Positions 9,001 through 27,637 are shown, numbered from the stretch's first letter. The stretch is DNA of 64,000 nucleotides from Raillietiella orientalis (GCA_036172245.1 JAYWIR010000079.1:248001-312000), one strand, 5' to 3'. Made by a program: numbers and translations. The notes: a model not told the origin generated them from the letters alone.

Positions 9001-9841
9001 GCAACGGAGAGACGGGAGCTGATGTAGGTTCGCAGTGATTTTTTGTATCTCGGACTGCAATCCGAAGCTATTCAGGGAGTCACTTCTTGTCGTCAGCATC
9101 ATATTCTATTTATTTGTTGAAGTGGGATATGAATTCATTGATGAAGCTTTTTGAGGGAAAGCTCCCAGTTATCAGTGGCGGCGGTTATACAGGAATTCCC
9201 GAAGCAGATATGCTAACCGCTGCCCTAATCTCACAGATAAGTGTCACTGATAAGCCACGTATCACCCGTTTTGACGCCGAGGGCATCTCACGGGGAGGGG
9301 ATGTTTACAGAGCAAACGCGCACTCTGCGGGCGTTCTGGTGGGTTCTCTCCCTGCTTCGCAAAGAGCGAGCTGCGTAGTGCTTGCAGAAATGCGTGTTGC
9401 TCTGGGCACGGAAAAGGGGGGAGGGCTCCCGGCTTGTTCGGATAGGGTCATGTTGAGCGCAACGCCTTAGTAAAATGCCGAACAGGAGGATTGAAATGGA
9501 CGGGCGTGCCTGCTAGAGACAGGCACGACCTCTTCCTCCCGAGCCAATAGATGGGTTGCCGCGCCCATGCTTACGAGGACACGTCGCGGCGCACGGAACG
9601 AGGGACCTCCCTCCGCCCCTTTCCCCTAGATGTGCTCTCGGTCGCCTTAGGAGCGGGCGGGAATCGTACCCGAGGGAGGACGGAAACTTCGCTGCTAAGC
9701 TCCAAGAGACCCGACGACGATTTTAGGGGGGGATGGGGGAGGGGAGTAGTAGAGAAGCTCGCTTTTTCTCTCCGTTCTGGAAGGCATCCTCTTTTCCGAC
9801 CCCACCTGCCCATCAGCGAAGGGCCCTTCCCTCCCTTCCAG

Positions 9842-12800
9842 ATCCCATGTTCTCCCGGGTAGCTCCTGTGCGGGACGACAAGGAAGTGTACAGGATAACA
9901 GAAGAGAGGCTGCGGTTGATCCGGGAGCCCTTGATGTACCCCTACTTCGACGGGGGCGAGCATGCCGAACTCGATCCGTCCAACATCCCGCAGAACGACT
10001 ACCAGGAACACATCAATGTGGGGGCCACGATGCTCAACAAGCAGCTGAACTTCAGGTTCCCGTTCTTCGGGATGGCCTACAACTACACCTGGGTATGGAG
10101 ATAGGGAACGGGATCGGATGCTGGAGAGCGGACACGGGGCATGGGAATGGGTTTGCCTTGTCAACCGCTGGACTCCCTGCAGATCTCCATCAATGGCTAC
10201 GTGGGATTTAGTGACAACCCAATCTACGTGGCCGCCTACCCCCTTCAGTTCCCGCAGCCCGAATGGCCCCGAATCCATGACCCCTCCTTCATCGGGCCGT
10301 TCTACAGTGAGATCAGCGTCGGTGCTCTCCGTGGAGACGAGATCGACAAGAGGAAACCTGGAGTGTACTTCCGGTAGACTGCCTTTCCTCGTTCCACGAC
10401 CCCGTGCACTTTTCCTGCTCTTCTGCAGTGTGGAAAGAGACCTCAACTCCCGCACTGACCAGTTCGGAGTGGAGCTCCGTGAGCGCCTCAAGTGGGACAT
10501 CCGAGAAGGCATCGTGGGCAGCTCGGTGTTCAGGCCTCAGCACTGCTTCATCGTCACCTGGAAGAACGTCAGCTTCGTTGGAGGGCAGAAGCCCTACTCC
10601 CTCTTAAAGGTACCTGCCTCCGTCCCATCCTTCCCTCCTCTTCCCTCCACGGAAACGAACCGTCCCTGGGGAACGGACCAAAGATGTTTGAGAAGGGAGT
10701 TGCCCCCTCCTGCGGAGCCTGCTCGTCTACTTTCTGAAGAGTTTCTCCTTTTCCTTCCAGACCAACACATTCCAGCTGGTAATAGCGACCGACGAGATCA
10801 CCTCGTACGCCATTTTCAACTACGAGTACCTGGGATGGACGGCCCACACCGGTGCAGGAGGTGATCCCGTGGAGGGGCTTGGAGGAACACCTGCCTTTGT
10901 AAGTGCTCGGGCCCATAGTGGGCCAAAGAGAAAATGTGACGGAACGAGAAGCCACTTCCTTTCCTCCCAGGTTGGCTTCAATGCGGGAAACGGGACAAAG
11001 GCCTTCGAGTACGTGCCTTACTCCCAGCAGATGAAAATCCGGGACCTGCCCAACGCCGGAAACACCAACGACAAGGCTGGGAGACACATTTTCCGGATTG
11101 ACGAGAGGATTCTTCGTGGAACGTGCAACCCGTATCCCGGTAACGAGGCCCCCTGCCAAGCCAGACTCGAATGCATCCTTCTCCTCCCTCTCTCTCTTCC
11201 TTTCCGGGCCCTTCACCTCTTTCCACCGAGCAGAGGGAACGAATCTACCCCTAGTGTTCGCCCCGGAGAAGGGCAACATGCTGGGCGGCCAGATGGTGAA
11301 TTTCACGGGCGTCTGTCTGCTTCCAAAGGACCGCGTGGTGTGCCGCTTTGACAGCTGGACCGTGGAAGGAATCGTCCTGGGACCGAACAAGGGGATGTGC
11401 ATCACTCCCCTAATGACTACATCGGGCTACGTAGTCTTCGCCATCTCCATCAACGGTGGACCCTTCCACTGGAGAGGTTACTACTTCGTTGGTAGGTTCC
11501 TCCCAGCCGGGAAGGGAGGAGGCTGTGTGCGCGTGGGCAGTAGGCTAGAAGGGACCTCCCTCCAGAGACCCCGGACACAGCACCTGAGGGCGTTTGGTTT
11601 GAGAACCACGACTGGCAGCTTCCCCACGTGGATGTCCTCAGCATCAAGTGGGACGCGCGCAACTTGTCACTCAATGCTCAGCATATGGTGCAGATCTCCT
11701 TGTGGGGGTACAAGGAGACCCAGATCGATCCCCAGTTCCTGTACATCGATGAGCTGGTGGTCAGTTTCTGCCTCTTCTTCTCTTCTGCTTCTTCTTCTCT
11801 TCATCTTCTCGGAGGAAGAGATCGACTTTTTTTCGTCCCCCTATCCAGGAGAGCACCCCCAACACCGGCTCTTACGATTTGACTCTTGCTGACTACAAGC
11901 ACCGGAGGAACCACAACTTGACCGAACTTAAGTTGGGCATGATCATGGTCAACCTGACCGATTCCGCTTCGTCGATCGGCCTCAAGTACTCTCCGTAAGA
12001 GACCCCTATCTAAGCCTCCCTCTGGAGTCGGTCTGAACGTTCGTCCTTTCACAGGAAAGTCTGGAGCCGTCCCGTTCCCTTAGCGTGGTACTTCAAGGAT
12101 CAATGGCAGGCGCAATACGGCAGCAAGTGGTCCCATCAGCTGTGCTTCGACTGGGTCTGGAAGGATAAGAGGATGAAGCAGTTCGCCCACGACGTAAGGA
12201 TGGGATGAGAGAGGGGGGGAAAGGGGGGGGAGAAATTTCCTCTTCCGTCTGCTGCTGAGTGGCCTCGCGTACTTCTCCAATCTCGTCAATTTCCTCTTTC
12301 TCCGATGAGGAGGTGTCGGGGCCGTAGCGACACGCCCGCGTTGGCGACTGCGTGGCACCAGGCGTTGTGGGTTCAAATCCCACCCGAGAGAATGGTTGCA
12401 TCATGGGTTCCGAGTTCCCCATCCGCCCAGAGGATGGCACTGGTTGGCCTACGGATTTCGAGTCCTTTCGGGAGCGGTGCTGGTGGGATGCACGTGCGCG
12501 TTGAGAACCGTCCGTCCCCGTCGACTGGCCAGGATTGGGACTTCGAATCCCAGCCAGTCCCCAGGATCCTTCCAGCATCCACGGAACCAGTCCCCTTCTA
12601 CGCTCTCTTCTAGTTGTGAGAATGAAATCAACCCCTCCCCTCCTCCTCATGGGAACCCTCCACAGATTTCATGGAGTTGGTTACCCCCTTCGGAGGGTCC
12701 CTCTCCAGAGAGGCTTTCCCGGAAGCCGCTTCCGGGAAAGCCCTTCAAAGGAGTGCTTGAGAAGCGGTTTCCTTGAGGGTTTCTTCCAAAGAAGGGATAA

Positions 12801-15800
12801 AGAGAGGCCTTCCTCGCGGTTCCCGTCAGAGACAACCAGCCATACGATTTCCTCCCAAGAATCAGAGAGGGGCTGACAGCGTTCGTTATGGTGGTCCCGT
12901 CGGGGATTTCCTGAGTTGCACGGCACCCTCGGGTGCCGCTGATGCTCCCTCTTGCACACGGTGACATCGTGGAGGTGCCGTTAAGGGGATGTTTCTAAGG
13001 GATGGACGGTTCTCGAGACCTTAGAGAACCCAAAAAGGATTTCTTTCGCCTAAGATTCATCGTGGATTCGCCTAAGAGCAGAATGGAAGCGTCTTCCTCG
13101 AACCGATTCGCCTGCCCTCTGGCAAATATCGGCCATAGAAGCTTCCCGGTAGCCTAGAAGCCCGCTTTATATCCCCTTTACCGAAATACACCCCAGACGA
13201 AAGTAGGAAAAAAGACTCCGAGAGTGCGGGGGCGTCCGTGTAACACGCCTTCCTGCTGACGGGTCTTGTACACGCCCTTGTCGCGAGGAAAGCGAAGCCT
13301 CCGCTATCCCGTTCAGGAACAAGCCGCTCCAACGAAAGGTTGTTCAGTGGCTGAGGGAAAGGAGGTAGGGAGAGGAGCTGGACAAGGAAGGGGAACGGGG
13401 TAGTGGTCTTCGTTGCTCGTGCCATCTTCCTTCACGAGATGCACTTCCTCGGACCGGCATCCCCACAAAAATTCTGGTGCGCCCATAGGTTCCATGGAGA
13501 GTCTTGAAACCTGGCTCATGGCTTTCGCTCGGTGGCATTGACCACATGTCAGACGGAGAGCAAGGTGTTCTGGTCGGCTGCTTGTGGTATCGTCTCTTCC
13601 TCGTTCGTCCTCTGGCACCTGCTCCTGCCCACTACCAAGCCTCCTCTTTTGCTCCTCCTTCCCCGTGCGAGGCCGCAGCGGCTCGACTTTTCCTGCCCCG
13701 CCTCCCCCCTGCGGGTAGGACGGGGAGGTGGGACGTCCTCGGCGCGTAGCAGGAGAGCCTTCCCGCACGCCGGTGGGCGCTCTCGCGCAGAGTCGAGTGG
13801 AGTGGTCTCCTGCAGCGCTGTCAAAATTCGCCACGGGGGGAAGAGGGAGAGGAACCGTTTGCCCACACCTGTTTCCGTCCTTCTGGGAGATCCCACCTGT
13901 CGCTTTCTCTCCATCGCTTTCCCTCCTTAAACTGCCAGTCCGCTATCCCAAATAGGGAGAGGCGAATCCTCCTCTGTACACCCCCCAACAACTCAAAGTC
14001 TGGGAATCCTCAGCAGTTCGTTATGCAAAGAAAAAATCTCCAGACAGGCAGACTCTTTTCTCGAATAAGGGCGAGGACAAAGGAGGGAGAGAGACAACGA
14101 AAAAAAAAGGCGCTGCACTTTCTTGCTCGAGGACCCTTACTGTTCGCTCAAACTCTTTGGGGAGGACAGCTTCTACCCCCTTTCAGCAGAGGAACATGCT
14201 GTGTCCTTCTCCAGCAAAGGCCGGCATCTTAGGAGACTCTTGTTCCAGGTCCCCAGGTGTCCCTGCCTTCTCCAGCAGGCACTAGCCGCCAAAGGACACT
14301 TTGTTGCCGACTACTCTTGCGACATTAACGGGAACACGGAGTGCCTCTATCACAAGGGCGCAGTGCACTGCGTGCGCAGTGGGCTGCCCAACCGAGACGG
14401 TGCCTCCCAGCAGTGCTGCTACGACAGGGAGGGCTATCTCATGATGACGGCGGACAAGAAGTGGGGGGGCACCCCGCAGAGAGCGCACAACTTGGGCATG
14501 CTGCCCTACTTCGAGGCGAACAAGGTCCCCACAATGTCCCACTGGTATCACGACATCATCCCTTTCTACCTCTGCTGCATGTGGAACAAGGAGCAGAGCG
14601 ACTCCTGCGAAATGTACCGCTTCGAGATGAGGGTATCGCAGGACTGCGTCGGCTACCAGCCTCCCACGGCAGGTATTCGCATCTTCCCCCTTTCCCTCCG
14701 TAACCATTTCTTCCATTTCTCAGCCGCGGTGTACGGAGACCCTCACATCACCACTTTCGACAACGTTGAGTACACGTTTAACGGACGCGGGGAATTCGTT
14801 CTGGTCCGCGCCAATACCGCCAACCACAAGCTGGACGTGCAGGGACGGTTCGAGGCCGTCGAGAACAATTTGTCTGGGTTCTCTCTGGGAACCACACTGA
14901 AGGCGGTTGCAGGTGAAGGACCTGTCTCCATCGGGTCCCTGCTTGCTAATTTCAATTTTCTTTCTCGCTCCTTTCAGCTAAAGACAACCAGTCCAGCACT
15001 GTCGAGGTCAAGATGAGATCACCTGAGTCCCAGTGGCGGTATAAGCTGGACATAACCGTGGACTCCATCCCCATCTATTTCGATTCTTTCTCTACGAAAA
15101 TACAGCAGTTCAAAGGTAACTTTTTCGGAAGCAAGGGACTCCTAGAAGAGATTCCTTTGTTTCTTGCCTTCTTTTCCCGTTCCAGGAGTCACCGTCTACA
15201 CCCCGAGCAATATCCTCAACCAATCAATCATCGTCATCATGTTCCAGTCCGGAGCGGGAGTAGAGGTCGTCGAAAGCCGCGGATACATGTCTTGCCGTGT
15301 TTATCTGCCTCTCGTGTTCATGGTAAAGTGCAAAAGACGCTGCTGCAGTGTGTGAGTCTCATGCAGGACCGTCACTCGGCTAACTCTCGTTACAAGTCTT
15401 GCGTTTTCGTGCCGAAATTCTCAAAGAATGCCGGAGGTTCACTGTTGTTTCGCTGAATTCAGTCAGATCTGTTGCTTGCCTAGGGTCTTCCTATCTGCAA
15501 CTCTCCCAAACGAAACCAGCTTCCAAAAGGTGAGAGGCTGGTTTTGTTTGGGAGTCCTGAGGTCCTTGCAGAGCGAACCAACCAGACCCTTGGATCTGCG
15601 CCTTTTTGGGGGGAGGGCTGGCCAATAAATTTGCACAGGATAAAGATAGATTTGGAATGAGGTCGAAAGAATTTGGGGATTAGCCAGAGACGGATTTTAG
15701 AGAAAGAAAGTATCCAGAACCAGACTGCCCGCAATCAAAAAGAACGGAAGGATGCGCCAACGCCTTGATTTTATGGATGAAGGAAGAGAGTCCCAAGAAC

Positions 15801-18800
15801 TGGGACTAGTGGATGAATAGCAGCCTCGCTCAAAATCGGAAGGAAGAGGCAGATTGCTGCTGATGGATCCATCCATTTTCAATAATGCTTAGGTCGAGAA
15901 TGCCTCAGGGATCAAGCAACATCTCCTGGAACAGCTGGAGTCTTTCAGCTTTGACCCATGCCGCCTCATGACTTGGGCAGGTTTATCAATAATGCTGCAC
16001 CCATTCGGCAGAGTGAAGTGCATCCTGCATGAGATGTTCCTCCTGAAGGCAGAAGGCAAAAGTATGAACAAACTGCAAGGCCACAGACTTCATCAGATCG
16101 TTGAAAACGATGAGTGACGAAATTCATCCTTCCGAGAAAACTTTTGCAACTCGGACGGCGTGTTTTGGACGTGGGTTTAATCCGAGACTTCGATTAATTT
16201 CGGAAGAACACTTCAATAGAACTTCGCTAACATCCCTCCCGGGAAGTTCGAACCTTCGCCGCGTTGGATAGCGTTGAGTTTCGTCTCTTAGTCCATCGGC
16301 AAGGCTCTCACTCAAATCGAAATGGTAGATGAAAATTCAACAGCCTGCTGTAGCTGAGACATCGGCCACTAGAAGTTGGCTCTTGCTTCGAAGGATGCGT
16401 TTCTGCTTTGCAGACGTGCGGCCGAAGGCTCAGAAGCGAGGAAATGTGTGTTGGGGCAGCGGCCAGCAGTTAAACGGCAGCATATGAGAACGACAATCAC
16501 ATCGTTGAAGATAAAATGGACTGGCAGCATCACAAGAAAACCAAATTGAATTCCAAGTGCAACAAGCATCCACCTACACCTCATTCACTCAAATTTTAGG
16601 ATTCAGAAAAGCCTCGATGCACAATGTTCTCCGACGTCTCGAGGGGGAAAAAAAATTATTCAACAGATCTCAACTTGGTGTGAGGAAGAAGTTTTTCTTC
16701 GATCCTCTCTTTCTAAAGGAATTCTTCTATAATTTCGAAACACAATTAATAGTGGAAACAAAATTGTATGAATATTGGAAGTACTCCAAAATCTGCGAGA
16801 AATACCTGAAGCGATTCCTTCAGAAGAGCGTATGAAAAAATAATAATTAAAAAAAAATCGCTCTTCCTTTTACTGTCTTCCTTACTCAGGCTAATTGCTT
16901 GGCTCAGGAGTCTGAGCAGCGACCTTAGGATATGGCGCATAATTGAACCAGCTAGCAGAACTCCAGAAAAAAGACTCAAGAAAGCAAATGATGTCAGATA
17001 CAAGCATCAGTCATCTCCCAGCTATTCCTTGAACCCCACTCACAAGAAACTCCGTTTTCTAGCGGGGAAACTTTTCTCGCCTCCAGAATGGAGTCAAGGA
17101 TGAAGATATGTTGTGTACGATCTGTTTTTCTTTCCAGACGTGGGAGAGTGGATGTTATCAAAAAAAGAAAAATCGTTGAGGTGGGATAAGTCCGACTCTT
17201 TTTTTTCTCGATATTTTATCCTTGATAACTCGATGTTCCCCCTTCATAATCGATAAGAAACTATTTGTAGTACTTGCACTATCGAAAAAATCAGCTCAGA
17301 TAAATTTGGTCAACGAGACCACGGTGACGTGAATGTTTAAACAGATCCAAGAGGAAACAAAAAAAAAAAAAAAACGGAAAAAAGAGAGAGAGAAAAGGAA
17401 GCCTTTTTGAAAAGCGCGAAGACTTGCCGTTTGAGCAGCATGAAATTTAAAGAATGTCGTTTCGTTAACCAATGTTTGTCGGAGGGTGGTTCATTAATTG
17501 GAATATTTACTTGCCTTCGGAAGAATTTTGCTTGGATATCTGCTGCTGCTAATCAGCATGCACATCAGATGGCCATCACATCGTCTGTGGGGATTCTTCG
17601 CTGAAATGAATCGAAGAAATATTGCTTTCACGGAACACTGTTCATCAAATAGATGACTTTAGCAAGCATACGGCGTGCACGTGGCAGCCGAGCTTGCTTT
17701 CAGCAGTTCCTAAAATGCAAGGATCGGCAGTTCTTTCAATCTTAATCATTCTTTTGTGAATCTCCGTGTCCGTTCGCCTAATGATGCTGCATTAACGTGC
17801 CATGAGGTTTTTCAGCATCTTTTGTGAGCTTATCTTCGTTTTTCTTTTTTACAGAATAAAACCAGAGGGCTCTTCGGAAACTGGAGTGGAAACAAAGAGG
17901 ATGATTTCCAGAGACCAGATGACCCTAATGACAGCTACGAATACCTCGATCCCAACAACTTCCAGTTGGTGCATGAGCGATTTGGAATGAAATGTAAGGA
18001 CTCTTTGCACACTGCAAGGATGTGCTTTGCTTTAAATGAAAAGATCTTTGTGCGTGTCTAAAAGCTGTTCCAAAATTCGCTGAGGCAAACTTCGTGGAAT
18101 ATGGCACGGACTGCCAACCGATCATTTTATAAGCACTAAAACATAATGTTCGAAACGAATCTGCGGTTCCTCGCATCTCATAGACCCGTGCCACAGCCAT
18201 GAGACCATACTGATGACGTCTTTCTACTGAGTTTTCGAAGCGAAAATCATCTTAAGCATAAAACAAAAAATGCGGGAGTCAACTCAGCAGTCCGATAATA
18301 AAAACCCTTTCCTCCGTCCTCAGGCTCTGTGCACTAAGCAGCTGACTGTGTCTACACCCCAAACCACCTATGTTCCTTAAGCACCGTATCTCCTACATAT
18401 CTTTGGGTCTAAAGTTCTTTCCTTTATCCAGGGAAAGTCTTCTCCCAAATCTCGAAGTCATGACTTCGCGGTAATCGTCCTTCAACTGATGCTTGGAAGT
18501 TTCTGCGCTGTTTACCTCGCCGTTTCGCCTCCCGTTCTCATATGCAAGAGCCTTTTCCGCAATAAGTCCATCAACTGAGATTTTCCAGTGCTGTTCTGGA
18601 AACTCTCACCAAAGTCCTCAAACAGAATTGAGGCTCTCTTCCGAAACATGTACCACAACAGGAATCCTACTCCCACACGAGCGAATGATTTTCCTTCGCC
18701 TTGGGTTATCCCCTCTGATCCCACTATTGATGCGATCCACTGTTCGTGTTTGACAAACGTCATTCCCCCAAAAGTCAATGACTCAAGTAAAAAAAAAAAA

Positions 18801-21800
18801 AAGTCTGGTTTTCTTTAAATGAAGAATCTGTTTTTTCCATGAATACTAAGATTTGAGATTCCTTAAGTGAGGAACTGAGTTACCGACGTGAATCATTTTT
18901 GCCCGTCAGATGTGCTTGATAGAAAAAGCTCCGCCTGCACTCACTGTGTTTCGTTTCAGGGGCCGTCGAAGACAAAGATGATCCGCTGAAGGGAAAATCC
19001 TTATTTTTCCACACGAACGAAAGATCTTCCAACTTCTACTACGACGAAGCGTACAAGCCCTTGTTCGAAAAGATGCCTACGCTACCTGATAACATGTAAG
19101 AGCTACAAGAACTGCCTACTCCTTCCACTACCTTGCATTCTCAAGAAAGCTCTCATCCTACTGTGCACAAATCAGCAAACACACAGTCACGATGCTGTTG
19201 CATTTTGCTAGAAACGCAGAATCGTCGTTGTTCTCAGTTGACTCGGGGGTCATTTGTCCTGCCTAGTTCAGCCCTCGGCAAATGCGATGTAATGTTTCCC
19301 TGCTCCTCTTTTTGTCTCCCAGTCCTTGATCCCTGCATGTATGAGAACAGGGGCAAAGCGAAAGCTCGGTCGCAGTCCAGAACCTGCGAAGAGACTGCAA
19401 GCGTGGCAAATCGTCGACAGTGAAGCGCGAAACGAACACGAGGGCGGAAACCACAGAATTTGCACGATAATTACGTTGATGGTTCGACCAAATACTGTGT
19501 GAAGAGGGCAGTTTCCTTTTCGAAGCAAATGGAGGGAAAAGAGTCATTGGGGCGTAGGAGCGTAATGAATTTCCTTTGGATTTCTGCATGCTTGTAAGAT
19601 GTGGAGCTGCTAGACAGAGCTCGGATTAAGAATCTCCAAACCCAAAGGAGCATAATATCTGCCTGACTGATAAGAATGAATGGCCACTCGGCTCATCGAA
19701 GGTAACGACATTGTGGCAAGGTGGGAAAAGGAATCGGGATTCCTGAGGCAAATTATGTCGGCAAAAACATCAAAAAGGCACTTTCTATGAACTGAAAAAA
19801 AAAAAAAAAAAAATTCCTGGACCCTATTAATCCAAGAAATTCCAACCATAGAATTCCTCGCAGCCATCCCATTTGTTGATAGATAGCAGGCACATGCAGT
19901 GAGTGATCCTTCCAAAGCGAGAGGTCATTTGTTGAATGTCAGTAGGCGTTTGATTTCTTTGTCTTGTCTATACTCACTTCTCTAGGTCACAGAGAAGCAG
20001 ATTCGAAAGTGTTTTAGCAGCGGATGCCTCTTGATTACACTTTGCTGTGAATTCTGTCATTGCCATTCCGTCGCTGAAATTTTTCGTGCCCAACTCTGAG
20101 CGAATATCGGCATTTTTAACACCTCTAGAAATTTCCTTTCAAGTATTTGACGGCGTCAAGTATTTTACCAGCTACTCTTCACCTCCGGAATATTCTTCGA
20201 GGAGAATTGCCATGCTCAAATGATGATCTCTGGATCAGTTAGCTATGAGTTGGAAAAGCGCCACCACTCCAAGATTCGGGAGAAGATGCAGGAGGAAATG
20301 ACAGATACTTCGAGATGCACCAATTCTCATCTCTCCAAATCCGTTTCCAATGTTTCATTCGTATTATGCTTTTCATATGCGTGCATATGACCCTCGAGTG
20401 GACCTACTAGCAGTCACCTGCTAGCTTCAGACCAAGATGATTGAATTTCGAGATTCAATCTAGTATATAGGCATTTTACTACTAAAGGAATTTGCATGGA
20501 ATGTAGATTGTGGAAGTATCAAAACCATTGGAGTCCATTTCTATGTTTTTTGAAATTCTTTTCATGGTTGGAGAAAAGTAATCATTCCATCGCCTTTAGA
20601 TGTCAAATGGAACTAACAGAAGGCGAATGAAGCACTGATTCCTTTTATGTTTTTTTTTTTCTATGTTTTTTTCCTTTTAGTGCTTTACATTTGTGTGCAT
20701 TACCTCAACATATTTCTCACTCTTCAAACCCGTTCGTATTTCCTGTATGGAGTTATTACTCACAATGGCTTCTAACTAGTCATTGTAACTAATAAATTCT
20801 AATGGCAAGGTGCATGTACATCGTCATCTTCCTTCTCTTTCTCTAATACAGGGAAACTATTCGAACTCGTGATCTGAATGAAACAACGGAGACTCATTTT
20901 AACTTGACAAGAGTGACTTTAATGCATTCAGATCATCAGAATTGAGAGCTGAACTCAATCACAGCTTCGGAAATGAAGTTTTGCAGGAGCGTTTGCTTAT
21001 GAGACGAAAAGCTTAGAGATGTAGGAGTTCGAAACGATGCTGAAACCACAATTTGATGCTAGTGTTCGCCTTTGGATCTCACAGTTCATCTCTCTGAACA
21101 AATTATAGGATACCTAAAAAGGAAAAAAAGTAACTCTGCGTTTACTGTTAATTCATATGCAAGGCAAGTAAGAACACATTCCCTTTCACGTGAAAGGATC
21201 ATTATTTCATTCAGAAATCAGAGGTAACAACAGCATCATGATTTCCACATGACAATGACCTGAAAGTCTGCCACACATTCTTGTATTTATTTTTCATGTT
21301 TTTTAGAACTCTCAAGAATCAGGATGTCTTGAAATTCTGTGGCATGTCGTACCAGTGTTATTTCGATTATGCTGTAACTTACAACCGTGAACTAGCCCGC
21401 TGGACCAAGCATTTCCAAGATGAATTTGTGAACATTAAGCAAATAGGGCTGCAAAAGGGTATGTGCATGCAATCGATTTGAGATCCGCTTTCGATCATTC
21501 GATACAATAACCATGCGCCGTTTCCATCATTGCGGTTTCGGAGAACTCATTCAATGAGATTGCTTTTGTTTTGAATGGCGCCTTTTTTCTCGAATTAGCC
21601 ACGGTGACCACGCGCTTCCGGTTAAAATTCCTGACCGAAGGATCCGTGGAAAGCGAAAGCGGTCCCCGCCAATGGGAACTCATAGCAATGCATCTTTGTT
21701 TGTCTTGATCAGTTCGAACAAGCCTGCTCGAACCCTGAAGAAGGGACTGAATTTTTCTTCGGAGGGATCCAGTTTCTTGGCTGCAGAAAACTGTTTCTCA

Positions 21801-24800
21801 ATGTAGAGATCGAATGGTACCTTTGATTTTGAGGAAGAGAAATTCTCTTCGCTCCGGTGACCGATGTGTTCTCTGGAAACTGGAAACGTGTGCAGCAAGG
21901 CTGGCTGAATGAGTATTTCAGTATAAATATTAGATTGCATGCCGATATTCGAAAAATATTAGTCCTTCTATATTCCTCGATTGTTTTGTGCTACCGATAG
22001 ATTTATTAATGCTCTTGACTGAAGATATGGGCTTTTTGTAAATATCAATAATACTATTTTTTTTGAATAGTGATTTCCTGCGGTGCGTTAGCGACTCCCA
22101 AACACGGAAGAAAAAGCAGTGTTTTTTATACACCTGGATCTGTTGTTAAATTTGACTGTGATGCTGGTTACATCTTGATCGGAGACAGAGAAAGAAAATG
22201 CGAATATGACGGACAGTGGAACGACCCGGAGGCTGGAAAAGCAAGATGCTTGCGTAAGCCTTTATATGTTTTCAGCATGAAATTTTTCCAATGCCACTGT
22301 TTATCCACGTTATTTTATTTCTTCAATCTAAAATGGGGATATTACCACAATCGATCAGTCTACCACTCTTATAAAGTGCACGCACAAAAAGTTATCGCTA
22401 GAATTCGTGTATTACAATGTTTCGTTATTGTCGAAAATTCAGGGGCTGCTTGTAATTATTATGATGCAAACAGGTGATGTGTGCCAATTAAATTTGATTA
22501 ATTGATTGTTTAAATAAATAAATACATATATATCAATTCGAAACGAAGAGATGAATGAAAGTGATGAAACAGCATAATGAATGAGAATTAATTTCAGATG
22601 TTTTTCAAAATTTAAGATACACGTATTCCTATGAAAGTCTGCGTCATCCTCTCAGTGACAAAACTTGGTCTTTGCCATTTCACAATCACAGCTAGAAAAA
22701 TCCTGCTTTTTTTATTAGGGAAATGCCTGGAAGAACCCTTGCTTGAAAAACCCATCTTGAAAAACCTAAGCATCGGTCTCCATCCTTTTCGATCCCCAGA
22801 TTGCATCTACTGTCTTACAAAAAATCCGAACACCTGGACACATGCATGCATAAATAATAAAAAACAAACTTTGAAACAAGTTTCTCAACGGAGACATCGG
22901 AATTTTTTAGTGCGATGCCAAACCTCATGTATCAATCATCACTATGCATCATCGTTTGCAATACAGCAACCAAGACACGGACATTCAGACTTCTTTCGTC
23001 TCTCTTGAATGGCACCAATTATAGTTACAGTTGTATTTCACAGATGCAGCTTTGTGGTTTGCATCTTTGCAAAGCCACATGAATTCGTTCGTGATTAAAG
23101 AACCGAAATTCGCAGAGAACCTGAATCTTCACAGTTGCTATTTTGTCCATGAAAACCTCGGTCAGTTTTCCCATGTTGCTTTGGTTCCCAAACTCCCTAG
23201 CTTAATTTTCGAGTTGAAGAAGTATACTTTGATTATTTTTTTGTGCGAATGCAAATGGTGGAAGTATTATTGCTGGCAATAATCAAAATTCCCTTCTCTT
23301 CACAAAGCTGTCAATTTCATGGGACCTTCGATTTCGAAAATTGCATGTTTTTTTTTTTTTTTTCTTTTGTTACTTTGATCTTTTTTTCTCTCATCGCTCC
23401 TCACCATTATGTTTGAAAGTTATGAAACTCATCAGGATGTGTTTGCAAGTTCGACAGCGACGTAAGGCAACAGATGAATCTAGTAGAATGGTTCTCTGAA
23501 ACCAGAACACTGGAATAGAAAGCAATTTACTTTTTGCTATTTCTTAAACTCTCCATAGATTGATCCTTCGTTTCTATTTCACTCATCTTGTTATGATCAT
23601 TTTTTTTTTGTTCAGTGATTCCTTTTGATTCTGGAAATTTCACTGATGAGGATGTACAAAGAGTATCTCATTCTACCAATCAAAGTAACCAATAAGCACT
23701 CATGCATTTGTTATGGATTCTGATACTTTGGTGTCATGAAAATATATCTCGTGATTTTTCTCTTTTCTTCGACTTTTAGGTTTTTCAACACTCGATAATT
23801 CATGTTTGCCATACTTGGGAGGTGCACATCGGAAAGAAAAACTCCTTAAAAATTGAGCTAGTTGTGATTAATTGTGATTATTAAAACTCTAGATAGCGTT
23901 TAGATTAGATGAGGAATAATTAAATTTCAATGCAGTGATTAAATTTAAGATAATTGTCACGGTCGTTACAGGGCTTCAAATTAAGCAAAACATTAGGCAT
24001 AGAAATTTTTCATCACCAGTCCTGGAAAATTAGAAACAGCGCATTCAGAATTTTGGGAGAAATTCTTTTATGTTTTCAATTGTAAGCAAAATTTTTTGCA
24101 GCTTTGCTCCATTTCGTAAAATCATACGTAAGACACATATGGTACGCATAAGCTGTTTTATTACCACAGCAGTAACAGTTAACGGTTGATGGTATGCCTC
24201 AAGAACGTGTGTTTCTAGAGGCACGAGCACATGCTTAAAGACATGTAATGCTATCTGTCTATCTGTCTTTAAGCAATTTATATATATATATATGTACATA
24301 CATACATGCATGCAGAGGGAAACATGACTTATCCAATTTTGTACAAAACAGATGGCTGGAAGAGTGCAGAAAAGAACAATGAAAAGAATCAATATAACTG
24401 TAAACTTGATAGTAGCTGTTAATCAATGGTAATGAAGAGCTTCCTGAAATCTTTTCGTAGAATCAAGGGCCTTTCGGAAATGTGGACGCTCCTAAATCAT
24501 GTATCCATGAATTGACTACGAAACTCGTCACAAGTAACCCCATTATCCATTTATCTGAAACTTAATAAAATCACCTGCGCTGCATACTCAGTGTACTAAG
24601 TACACGGTCAGTCGAGCTGCTGATTCTGCGAAAGTTCAGATTTGAGGAAGTTCACTGTGTTTGAGGAAACTGACCGTAGAAAGCGCTCTCTGAAGTATCC
24701 GATTTTCGGGTGCTTCGCGAGAGTGCCCAAAAAATGATGGTGTATGTTTCGTAAAACAACGCATCATTTGTAGTTATGTTGCTTTTGCCTTCTATACTAA

Positions 24801-25168
24801 TATGTCTTGTTCCAGCTGAGGAAAGTTATTCCGCTATGATGGCAGGAATTACTTCGGGCATTGTGATAGCAGTTGTCATACCTTTATTATGTATAGCAGT
24901 ATTAATCCTGGTGTGCATAAAAAAGAATCGAAGACGTAAAAATGCTGCCCCCCTAAAAAACGGGTCTCTAATACCTAAATCTGGAAATCACGATTCTGGC
25001 AAAGGTTCTTCAGAAGAGAGTCCCGGAAAATCGAAATCTTACGAACCTCGTGATCTCGATGGCGAATATTTTACAGGAGAACCTTTGCCTAACAGATATA
25101 ATTACGAATTTGATGACGAGAACGAAAAATACCCTCCTGTTACAACTGGACATTCAGCCATGGTTTAA
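9842..25168 (+). CDS. mesh: Mesh (SUSD2/MUC4-related) single-pass adhesion protein, isoform with terminal exon A; 5'-incomplete model
   Basis: Exons, all GT-AG and phase-consistent: 9842-10092, 10183-10373, 10429-10609, 10761-10898, 10971-11139, 11234-11491, 11566-11759, 11849-11994, 12055-12193, 14249-14672, 14724-14912, 14978-15115, 15186-15322, 17855-17993, 18960-19095, 21307-21458, 22071-22253, 24816-25168 (about 1172 codons). Domains: NIDO ([29 protein letters not shown]), IPT/TIG ([18 protein letters not shown]), AMOP ([25 protein letters not shown]), VWD starting GDPHITTFD, Sushi ([12 protein letters not shown]...[11 protein letters not shown]...W...C) and a TM helix. The first listed exon starts in phase 1, so the signal-peptide exon(s) lie further upstream. 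Confidence 0.93.
12340..12690 (+). mobile_element. Degenerate tRNA-derived SINE-like repeat, copy 1 (mesh intron)
   Basis: B-box-like GGTTCAAATCC at 12370-12380. 12350-12385 is 30/36 identical to the reverse complement of 37302-37337. Further colinear blocks are shared (CACTGGTTGGCCT, GACTGGCC, CATGGAGTTGGTTACC). Boundaries are approximate. Confidence 0.55.
20802..21040 (+). mobile_element. Highly degraded RTE-like non-LTR retrotransposon fragment (post-RT region)
   Basis: Stop-interrupted translations [14 protein letters not shown] and [30 protein letters not shown] resemble the RTE-clade pattern PILxYGxETW...AxEMKFLRxI...RD.IRNE. Recognised by eye only. Confidence 0.35.
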
Positions 25169-25199
25169 TGTTATTGGTGTCAAAACACGCTCGATACAA

Positions 25200-25205
25200 A
25201 ATAAA
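25200..25205 (+). promoter_or_regulatory. Polyadenylation signal for mesh isoform A
   Basis: AATAAA about 30 nt after the exon A stop and before the exon B acceptor. Confidence 0.6.
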
Positions 25206-25252
25206 ATGCTCAAAGAATGTTTACACAGCGTAATACTACGATACTATTTTAG

Positions 25253-25528
25253 CTGAGGATAGCTACCAAGCCATGATGGGAGGTATCACATCCGGAATTG
25301 TTTTGGCCGTTGCTATACCCATACTGTTGATTGCTCTTTGCATCCTCTTGTTGGTACGCCGACGTCGATCCAGGAAACGAAAACAGTACGTATCCGAGAT
25401 TAGGATACATCGCTTTTTACGGAGTCTTCAGGAATATGATATATGTTACATCAGGAAGAGATGCATCTACACTACCTATGAATGCGGCAGCTTCTTCACG
25501 TTTGGTTGGCAAAGAAACGGCAACGTGA
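25253..25528 (+). CDS. mesh: Alternative terminal exon set B of mesh (second TM segment plus short tail)
   Basis: Acceptor ttttag at 25251-25252 is in the same phase (1) as exon A. Exon 25253-25385 encodes (P)EDSYQAMMGGITSGIVLAVAIPILLIALCILLLVRRRRSRKRK, 26/42 identical to exon A. A probable 46-nt intron (25386-25431, GTACGT...TTCAG) leads to 25432-25528, QNMIYVTSGRDASTLPMNAAASSRLVGKETAT*. If the intron is retained, the stop is at 25537-25539. Confidence 0.8.
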
Positions 25529-25568
25529 CGTTTTTTTAAAAAAATATATTATACACGAATATCATACT

Positions 25569-25574
25569 TTTATT
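25569..25574 (-). promoter_or_regulatory. Candidate polyadenylation signal overlapping the ALKBH8 stop codon
   Basis: The minus strand reads CAA TAA AAG, so AATAAA includes the TAA stop. Confidence 0.5.
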
Positions 25575-27637
25575 GGGACGTTTTGCATACAACAGCTACC
25601 CAATTTCCTCGATCATAGTAAACAGAGTTCTCCACACGAGCTCCAGAGATCTCCCCAATCAATTCTGCCAATTCGCCTTCGCAGAATACATGATAAAAGC
25701 GTAACTGCACCGGAGCAGCACTTGGTTGATTGGGTTTCCAAGGCACATATGAATCTTGATACAAGAAGGGTGAGCGTCCGTTCTGAACAGGAAGCGAGCA
25801 GACAGGAGACACGTGCTCACTTGGATGCACTGTATCTGCCTGGGCACTGTCACCTTGTTCCTTTGCCCAGACAGTGAAAAGGGCACGCCCACCTTCACGC
25901 AGGACACGAATAAGTTCCGCTATTGCTGCCCGTCTTCTCTCCTAAGCTGAAATAGCAACGATCTACTATACACTTGGTGATGCTCACTTTTGTAGCTAAA
26001 TGATGAATAACTGCTATGCACAAACATGCGTTGATGCACGCATCGCGAAATGGAAGATGAAGACAGTCCGCGCACAAAACGTTCAATTCTTGGTCTCTAC
26101 AGAGTCTCAGCAGAGATGTGCTCCTGTCAACTCCGATCTCTACTAGACAATCCCGAATATGCATGTTTTTTCCATTTCCACAGCCAACATCTAAAAGAAA
26201 CGTTCCTGGGGGCAGGGAGCGAACAAAGTCAACTACAGCTGGCCAAGGTTTATAACGTGTTTGATGAAAGTGTTGGGCAATGCACTCGTACACCTACACG
26301 AATCAACATCGATAACAAGAAGGCCTACATACATCGTGAACATGTGTTTTTTCGATCTGAATGGCTAAGTCTTGGATTGGCACAACTTTCTGTTGGTCAC
26401 AACTACTTGGAAATGGGCACGTGCAACCACCATGAGAAACTCGACGAAATGTAAAAGATACCCGCTTCCGTCGATGAGAAAGAGTCAGGCTGCCGTTCTC
26501 GCCAATAACTGTATCTGTCGTTCGAGGAGTTATTCCATGTGTCCAGATGTACCTACAATAAACAGTCATGTCCTGCAGCCATCACCATGCTGGTAACCTG
26601 CTCTCCTGACTCATCAACAATAAACTACGCGGATTCAATAGCACAGGAACATGCTTTCCTGTTTTCTGTTCTTTAAAATCCATGACTACAGAAGAACACA
26701 AACTTAAGCAAAGAATTCCATCTTCAAATGCACTGTGAGCATCAACGTGAGGTGGAATACCTGGGGAGGACAGAAAATTCCAACATAACCAGTATCTTAT
26801 TCTACCTTGTCCTGAGTTGTAACTGTTGACAGTTAACTGATCAGGCATATGGGAAATGATGCCTCTGTTTAAAGCCCTCTGCAAGATTTCCAAACAAAGG
26901 GGGGGAATTGGTTTTTCCAAATTTACTGTATCTACTGTGTTACTATCATATAAAAACCTGAAGCCAAAATGGAGAACTGTACGGCGTTTCAGAGAGCAAG
27001 TTAGTTGTTCGAATTCTGAATGAAGAGTCAAGAGGGCTTCTTCTTCTTGAGGACTAATAAAATCTTCAAACAGTTGTAATCCTGGAACTATATCTTTCTG
27101 AGACCAAATGTTTTGTTCAACTGAAACTAGGAATCATTGCTGACATCGGATCTTACGTGAGCAACTTACTATGAGTTACAAAGGATAACAACAAAATGGA
27201 ATTCCCCAGATGATAATGTCCATGTATTGCATTCATGGCATCAACAGCATCCTCAGTGCATTCATATTCTATGAACGCATAAGCTTTCCCAGTTAGAAGA
27301 GTAACATTACAAAGCATTCCATAAGGGGAAAAAATCTTTATAAGATCTTCTGCTCCGATGCCAGTTAGCATTCCAGCATTGAGCACTGCTATGATCTATC
27401 ATTATTCAAAAGTACTAACTAAGTAGTTAATTTGGCAATCAATTTCTATACATTAGATACTTGTTGACACAAGCTGATACCATCCCTCAGTAATTTCACT
27501 GATGCCTTTCTGGCTTTGAATGCTATTTTTCTGTTATGATTCTTGCTGATTCCATGAGACTACAATAAGGAAAGAATAAACTTAAAATACAGAGAAAGAA
27601 CAGCAACTACCTACAACCAGTTAATAACCTGGACCAT
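25570..27637 (-). CDS. ALKBH8: Alkylated DNA repair protein AlkB homolog 8 (tRNA mcm5U methyltransferase / 2OG-Fe(II) dioxygenase), about 572 aa
   Basis: Minus-strand exons: 27637-27629 (tentative MVQ), 27559-27452, 27395-27170, 27120-26806, 26760-26598, 26552-26333, 26293-25988, 25941-25570; phases consistent. Motifs: RRM (GKAYAFIEY), AlkB domain (LKRRTVLHFGFRFLY, PDQLTVNSY, GIPPHVDAH, YIWTHGI, RVSFTFR), Zn site CTCPFPSSCD, Trm9-like MTase (LDVGCGNGK, IAVIHHLAT, RFYHVFCEGEL, YYDRGNW). Confidence 0.95.

Follow-up and report, generated by a model that had tools for sequence, protein, structure and literature searches.

Two candidate alternative last exons, each with its own transmembrane helix, at the 3′ end of a probable mesh orthologue in Raillietiella orientalis

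Mesh, a gut protein of the smooth septate junction, is related to vertebrate SUSD2, and the described genes closest to the locus considered here are the pancrustacean mesh genes whose RefSeq models ('protein mesh isoform X1/X2') form pairs with a long (L) and a short (S) end. The likeness extends to the domain order, to a point of divergence right past the Sushi domain, to a long tail with the same Y-x-T-x-E-P-[LV] sequence, to a second, paralogous transmembrane (TM) segment followed by a short tail, and to the order L then S. The Mesh encoded here, whose two last exons are called A and B, differs from those of other Pancrustacea in being only ~52% identical to the nearest of them, from ostracods, in having neither tail end in [ST]-x-[VIL], and in a short tail that seems to need an extra mini-intron; its L tail is without the W-D-L part, as in ostracods. 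Vertebrate SUSD2 shares the AMOP-VWD-Sushi ectodomain and has one TM segment, at its C-terminus, with GxxxG-type glycines (frog SUSD2). However, in the few vertebrate proteins compared there was one TM segment with a short tail, no Y-x-T-x-E-P-L, and no second TM exon was seen.

Is there a precedent for one ectodomain being provided with either of two TM helices? The choice at exon 17 of Dscam1 bears on dendrite versus axon targeting, and so alternative TM helices can change localisation. The exon-17 cluster of insects, named in the abstract of PMC8042237, has two alternative TM-encoding exons, and there, likewise, a single ectodomain can receive one or the other of two tandem duplicated TM exons. 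However, the Dscam exons are internal, mutually exclusive cassettes with shared exons downstream, whereas mesh A and B are terminal, with their own stops and unrelated tails. As both mesh exons are terminal, their exclusivity would be a matter of polyadenylation, with no special splicing device involved. An internal cassette of the Dscam exon 17 type was considered for the present locus and rejected: exon A ends with a stop and AATAAA, and the stop of a convergent gene is within 41 nt of B.

In PMC8277862, the subject of which is Ssk duplicates and not mesh exons, Ssk, Mesh and Tsp2A are a complex that forms the junction core, and in PMC4805545 Mesh co-purifies with the PDZ scaffold Dlg1. For Drosophila mesh three isoforms are on record, with Hu et al. 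2016 cited for the known isoforms, and passages in PMC9545526 and PMC10565245 make no mention of mesh isoforms. No published remark that the mesh TM helix itself is alternative or duplicated was found in the literature on mesh isoforms that was covered, which left most subscription papers outside. By comparison with the annotated pairs, the A/B arrangement is the ordinary long/short mesh isoform pair, already annotated in many insects and crustaceans; it is not new, and the findings on these exons do not overturn current views. Their interest is that the L/S last-exon structure, with each isoform having its own TM helix, reaches a deeply branching crustacean-like lineage, and going by its distribution that structure is probably as old as Pancrustacea. 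For junction biology, what alternates goes beyond the cytoplasmic tail to include the TM helix, with both helices keeping GxxxG and an invariant proline.

The window, by which is meant the whole 64,000-nt stretch of Raillietiella orientalis DNA that was analysed (GCA_036172245.1, JAYWIR010000079.1:248001-312000), would, on the reading that we prefer and to which we give a probability of about 0.8, contain the 3′ end of a mesh orthologue with long and short ends at two alternative last exons, L reached via 24816 and S via 25253. The upstream part of this mesh/SUSD2-like gene (9805-22253, + strand), with NIDO, AMOP, VWD and Sushi domains, is common to both isoforms. Pfam matches on its exons come in the order of the family, NIDO (5.4e-20), AMOP (5.1e-52), VWD (1.7e-07) and Sushi (1.2e-08), and some 13 exon blocks were mapped, colinearly, by tblastn of ostracod and decapod Mesh proteins against the window. 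The relatives have in addition an Ig-like/TIG domain between NIDO and AMOP (PF23263 / PF01833), and the matching window exons, at ~11.2-12.2 kb, align by tblastn. Among 244 candidates the AMOP exon matched 83 proteins at E <= 1e-10; almost all the arthropod proteins that have a name are called 'protein mesh', and those from vertebrates are SUSD2. When all exons are summed, identity to Mesh is greatest for the ostracods Darwinula (52%) and Cyprideis (51%), and is 47-50% for malacostracans and copepods and 43-46% for insects; by this measure the gene's nearest relatives are crustacean (ostracod) and not insect Mesh, and the DNA would come from a pancrustacean with no close relative in the database, probably one outside the insects. 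The gene is heterogeneous in composition. Its 5′ half (to ~15.3 kb) has 52-60% GC and introns that, with one exception of ~2 kb, are short (~55, 66 and 70 nt for the three that were delimited, with the remaining inter-block gaps below ~150 nt), and its 3′ half is AT-rich, with 35-45% GC and introns of 0.6-2.6 kb.

The Sushi exon (~22071-22253, + strand) is the last that the two isoforms have in common; it ends ...GCA AGA TGC TTG C at 22253, the last C being codon position 1, and is followed by GTAAGC, thus a phase-1 donor with its GT at 22254. The intron between it and exon A (22254-24815, + strand, 2562 nt) runs from that donor to a ttccag acceptor, and the intron of the short isoform would extend to 25252, with exon A inside it. 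An initial annotation of this DNA had placed two acceptors, each followed by CTGAGGA, after a phase-1 Sushi donor, and that is what is read, ttccag/CTGAGGA at 24816 and ttttag/CTGAGGA at 25253, the CT of each completing a CCT (Pro) codon; translation also reproduces the two exon peptides that it had reported.

Exon A (24816-25168, + strand) is a long-type terminal exon by its translation, its match to the Darwinula Mesh C-terminus and its motif. It encodes a juxtamembrane segment and a TM helix (~24842-24919), then a basic stretch for stop-transfer, KKNRRRK, and lastly a tail of 75 aa which is acidic, Tyr-rich and ends SAMV, with the stop at 25166-25168. Its poly(A) signal, AATAAA at 25200-25205 on the + strand, is 32 nt past that stop and 48 nt before the acceptor of B, so the long, acidic, Tyr-rich tail with an AATAAA of its own that had been described is correct. 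The first part of exon B (25253-25385, + strand), the short-type exon, was delimited by translation, by its similarity to A and by alignment to the TM segments of relatives, and encodes a juxtamembrane segment, a TM helix (~25279-25356) and a basic RRRRSRKRK, after which comes a GTACGT donor at 25386. The TM segments of both exons align gaplessly with 27 isoform ends of relatives. A run-on L+S product from the window, of the kind found in two-TM lepidopteran models, was discarded on a by-eye reading, as the sole GT close to the stop of A has phase 0 and does not suit B's acceptor, which has phase 1.

How general are the two ends? Isoform pairs were drawn from ten 90% clusters of Mesh proteins, in which 14 species had paired models. 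The crustaceans were the decapods Palaemon, two Macrobrachium, Scylla and Portunus, the amphipod Hyalella and the stomatopod Oratosquilla, and the insects, from six orders, were Periplaneta, Ischnura, Colletes, Thrips, Rhodnius, Rhynocoris and Chrysoperla. In all 14 the L and S forms diverge 0-16 residues past the last Sushi Cys and differ from there to the end, each with its own TM segment, so the comparison with relatives and known mesh isoforms that had been proposed as a check comes out in favour of two ends. The long forms have a conserved block, Y-D-x-x-Y-x-T-x-E-P-[LV]-x-x-x-P..F...W-D-L, the core motif of which, [YF]x[TS]xEP[LVI], is present in 59 of the 107 fetched Mesh proteins of at least 700 aa; in exon A, where the block is at ~25055-25120, it is EYFTGEPLP. 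From ostracods to Lepidoptera the portion Y-D-x-x-Y-x-T-x-E-P-L-P-x-x-P..F is among the most conserved cytoplasmic parts, and no described function for it turned up in the literature searched. The Darwinula Mesh C-terminus aligns by tblastn to 24818-25126 (E 1.4e-14), and with it as the query, copepod-like proteins of both the long and the short form were added, as was one more long form from an ostracod. Used by itself, the exon A peptide, a query too short for that database, had no match at E <= 0.01 to the longer proteins.

Over 102 fetched proteins of at least 1000 aa, the C-terminal classes were long with one TM segment (43), short with one TM segment (42, one being a frog SUSD2 that is merely without the motif), run-on L+S with two TM segments, L before S (14), and no TM segment, through truncation (3). 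Lepidoptera (the Swiss-Prot Bombyx entry among them), Ephemera, Frankliniella fusca and Hetaerina are the sources of the 14 run-on models, from which it is deduced that in insect genomes the long exon precedes the short one, just as it does in the window. In Lepidoptera the two-TM form has been annotated repeatedly (isoform X3) and, if real, would pass through the membrane twice; either these models are artefacts of annotation or they represent a third, unexplored isoform. A C-terminal [ST]-x-[VIL] ends 31 of the 43 L tails and 14 of the 42 S tails of relatives, and neither window tail, and 18 of the 42 short tails end [ST][EDM][VIF]x; SAMV and KETAT fit neither pattern exactly. Judged by these comparisons, A and B are, respectively, the long- and short-type terminal exons of a pair found across Pancrustacea.

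The tail of B had been described as short and ending KETAT. That holds only if a 46- or a 73-nt intron is removed, since KETAT is not in the frame of the TM segment: read straight through, exon B ends ...NGNVTFF at 25539, and removal of a 69-nt in-frame intron would keep that ending. Enumeration of GT..AG combinations past B's TM segment gave one good donor, ACA/GTACGT at 25386, and hence a putative mini-intron at 25386-25431 (+ strand), 46 nt, GTACGT...TCTTCAG; with an alternative AG at 25458 the intron would be 73 nt and the ending the same KETAT. The second part of exon B would then be 25432-25528 (+ strand), encoding the tail (Q)NMIYVTSGRDASTLPMNAAASSRLVGKETAT, with the stop at 25526-25528. 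What favours the mini-intron is the composition of the resulting tail, which fits that of relatives, together with the resemblance of KETAT to the ends of insect short isoforms (KETEVN, KETEVL, KETMVN or KETDFN). The fraction of Cys, Trp, Phe, Tyr and Ile in 40 short tails of relatives has a median of 0.081 and a maximum of 0.143; for the tail of B it is 0.065 with the 46-nt intron removed, 0.40 on read-through and 0.41 with the 69-nt in-frame intron removed. Plain read-through and the 69-nt intron are accordingly disfavoured, for the tails that they give are rich in Cys and aromatic residues and far outside those 40. Removal of the mini-intron, with a short tail of ~32 aa ending KETAT, is the most likely outcome on these grounds, and for annotation the consequence is that exon B, probably with a tiny internal intron, belongs in the gene model. 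At 46 nt it would be shorter than the shortest intron delimited in the mesh gene (~55 nt). Two forward frames are open together over this tail (ORFs 25234-25539 and 25331-25528), and therefore retention and removal of the mini-intron would both give a terminated protein. A hexamer scan after exon B found no canonical AATAAA or ATTAAA, the only poly(A)-like hexamers downstream being weak ones, TTTAAA at 25535 and AATATA at 25543.

The likeness of A and B to each other is far beyond chance. When the entire window was searched in six frames the two matched at E 1.4e-13 and the next best match was at E 0.018; no third TM copy was found in that search, which took in the 2.5-kb intron before exon A. 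The TM segments had been put at 26 of 42 residues identical, and this is what recounting gives, as 25 of the 41 full codons from E to K are identical in meaning and the split Pro is shared. Identity by codon position is 29/43, 31/43 and 14/43, and 16 of the 25 conserved residues have different codons, as expected from the earlier remark that third positions mostly differ where residues are kept. By the Nei-Gojobori method pS is 0.74, dN 0.42 and dN/dS ~0.13, which supports purifying selection as foreseen, though with dS saturated the ratio is imprecise.

For the history of the TM helix, the 48 residues past the last Sushi Cys were aligned without gaps in 29 rows, comprising 13 species pairs (that of Macrobrachium nipponense was omitted as redundant), Darwinula L, and window A and B. 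Tyr or Phe at column 6 and a mid-helix Pro at column 24 are present in all 29, and Thr at column 14 in 26. An AxxxGxxxG small-residue motif had been pointed out in the two window exons. Its GxxxG part, Gly at columns 12 and 16, is kept in 23 of the 29 rows, both window exons included, but its Ala (column 8) is found in 4 of the 29 only. In a tree of the TM parts, what unites the rows is lineage rather than isoform type: window A pairs with window B (96/86), Darwinula being the next to join them, and all the malacostracan rows, whether L or S, fall in a single clade (96/99). Within species, L-S identity over 40 columns ranges from 11 (Thrips, Rhodnius) to 35 (Portunus), being 34-35 in crabs and 25 in the window, where the TM segment closest to A is that of B and vice versa. 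A single clade uniting the L-type TM segments is rejected by the AU test, with p 0.00016 for 48 columns and p 0.0024 for columns 15-48, a subset without the residues that may in some species belong to the shared exon, these values being for groups chosen after a first tree, in an alignment of 34-48 columns with several long branches. The proposal of an old exon duplication under purifying selection thus stands for the pair, which the tails and the exon order indicate to be old and the dN/dS of ~0.13 to be under constraint, and is not borne out for the TM parts as one ancient duplication whose products diverged independently. Put another way, tails and exon order point to an ancient pair, and the TM parts by themselves show no ancient split.

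Why, then, should the TM parts resemble each other within lineages? Gene conversion long ago, or else selection through a shared partner, would keep them alike. Under the former, the TM part would have been re-copied between A and B, or one exon re-duplicated, in this lineage, as appears to have occurred in others, with the function as alternative last exons unchanged. The sister relationship of A and B at 25 of 40 columns, the single malacostracan clade, the near identity reached within crabs and both AU results are what this would produce. However, a co-evolving membrane partner shared by both helices would yield the same tree, the tree itself comes from few columns, long branches and groups formed after inspection, and recent conversion in the window is excluded because synonymous sites are saturated (pS 0.74, third position 14/43), so that any such event must be very old; re-copying is a possible history, at well under even odds. 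A slightly more tentative thought is that the L and S helices evolve in step in each lineage since both must fit the same intramembrane partner, Ssk or Tsp2A. Were this true, and due to selection and not conversion, mesh would be a natural paired-helix system for mapping the intramembrane interface of the core complex of the junction, and the L/S switch a pancrustacean-wide device that alters cytoplasmic coupling only, e.g. to PDZ scaffolds of the Dlg type.

Two other explanations would deny exon B its place as an alternative end. It could be a decaying relic, the 25253 exon no longer being spliced in and only the long isoform made. The absence of a canonical poly(A) signal, the abutting neighbour, a tail that is unreadable unless an unusually small intron is assumed, and the presence of L-type models only in the nearest database relatives, the ostracods Darwinula and Cyprideis, are all compatible with this. 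But those ostracod entries are single automatic gene models, so a second exon may yet be there, and B itself has an intact acceptor with a pyrimidine tract, an open frame of 43 codons, of which 25 keep their residue amid saturated synonymous change at dN/dS ~0.13, and the family-invariant Tyr of column 6 along with GxxxG and the Pro of column 24; decay is therefore an unlikely account. The 25253 segment could alternatively be part of some other transcript, either a small TM-protein gene whose start would be the ATG ATG at 25273 or the convergent gene, of which it would be the 3′ end in antisense. Two in-frame ATGs do stand at the start of the segment and that gene does end 41 nt away. Yet the P-E-D-S-Y-Q-A before the ATGs is conserved with exon A and aligns with the juxtamembrane residues of relatives, acceptor and phase fit the Sushi donor, 14 species have this architecture annotated as an isoform of mesh, and the neighbour, whose AATAAA overlaps its own stop, probably ends before the TM part of B. 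A separate transcript is very improbable, and alternative last exons of one mesh gene remain the reading that we follow.

On that reading, splicing of the Sushi donor (22253/GT) to 24816 would give an L isoform with its own TM helix, the 75-aa tail with its Y-x-T-x-E-P-L-P block, and its own stop and AATAAA, and skipping of exon A, with the Sushi donor joined to 25253, would give an S isoform with the paralogous TM helix and the tail of ~32 aa, the mini-intron having likely been removed. As exon A seems to offer no usable phase-1 donor, the choice would be a competition between splicing to A plus cleavage past 25205, and splicing past A to B. Direct competition is probable because the branch-point/pyrimidine region of B is within ~50 nt of the AATAAA of A, and because exon A carries a stop and a poly(A) signal the two ends would be exclusive without a special device. 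Both isoforms would have the same ectodomain and a similar GxxxG/Pro TM helix, presumably for the complex with Ssk and Tsp2A, and would differ in their tails, which presumably serve distinct scaffold or sorting partners. Use of both junctions in Raillietiella orientalis, the mini-intron and the competition are what we infer from the genomic sequence, and a switching of partners with a shared TM interface is plausible.

The convergent gene (25570-27133, - strand), delimited by Pfam and ORFs, has 2OG-Fe(II) oxygenase and methyltransferase domains (Methyltransf_11 3e-10; 2OG-FeII_Oxy_2 7e-07, the latter below the curated cut-off), an architecture that we take to be ALKBH8-like. Its stop is at 25570-25572, overlapped by an AATAAA on its own strand at 25569-25574, and is 41 nt from the putative stop of exon B, and the 3′ ends of mesh and of this gene must abut or overlap. 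Further along, from 36000 to 64000, the window is GC-rich, at 53-64% as against 32-45% in the 16-36 kb stretch.
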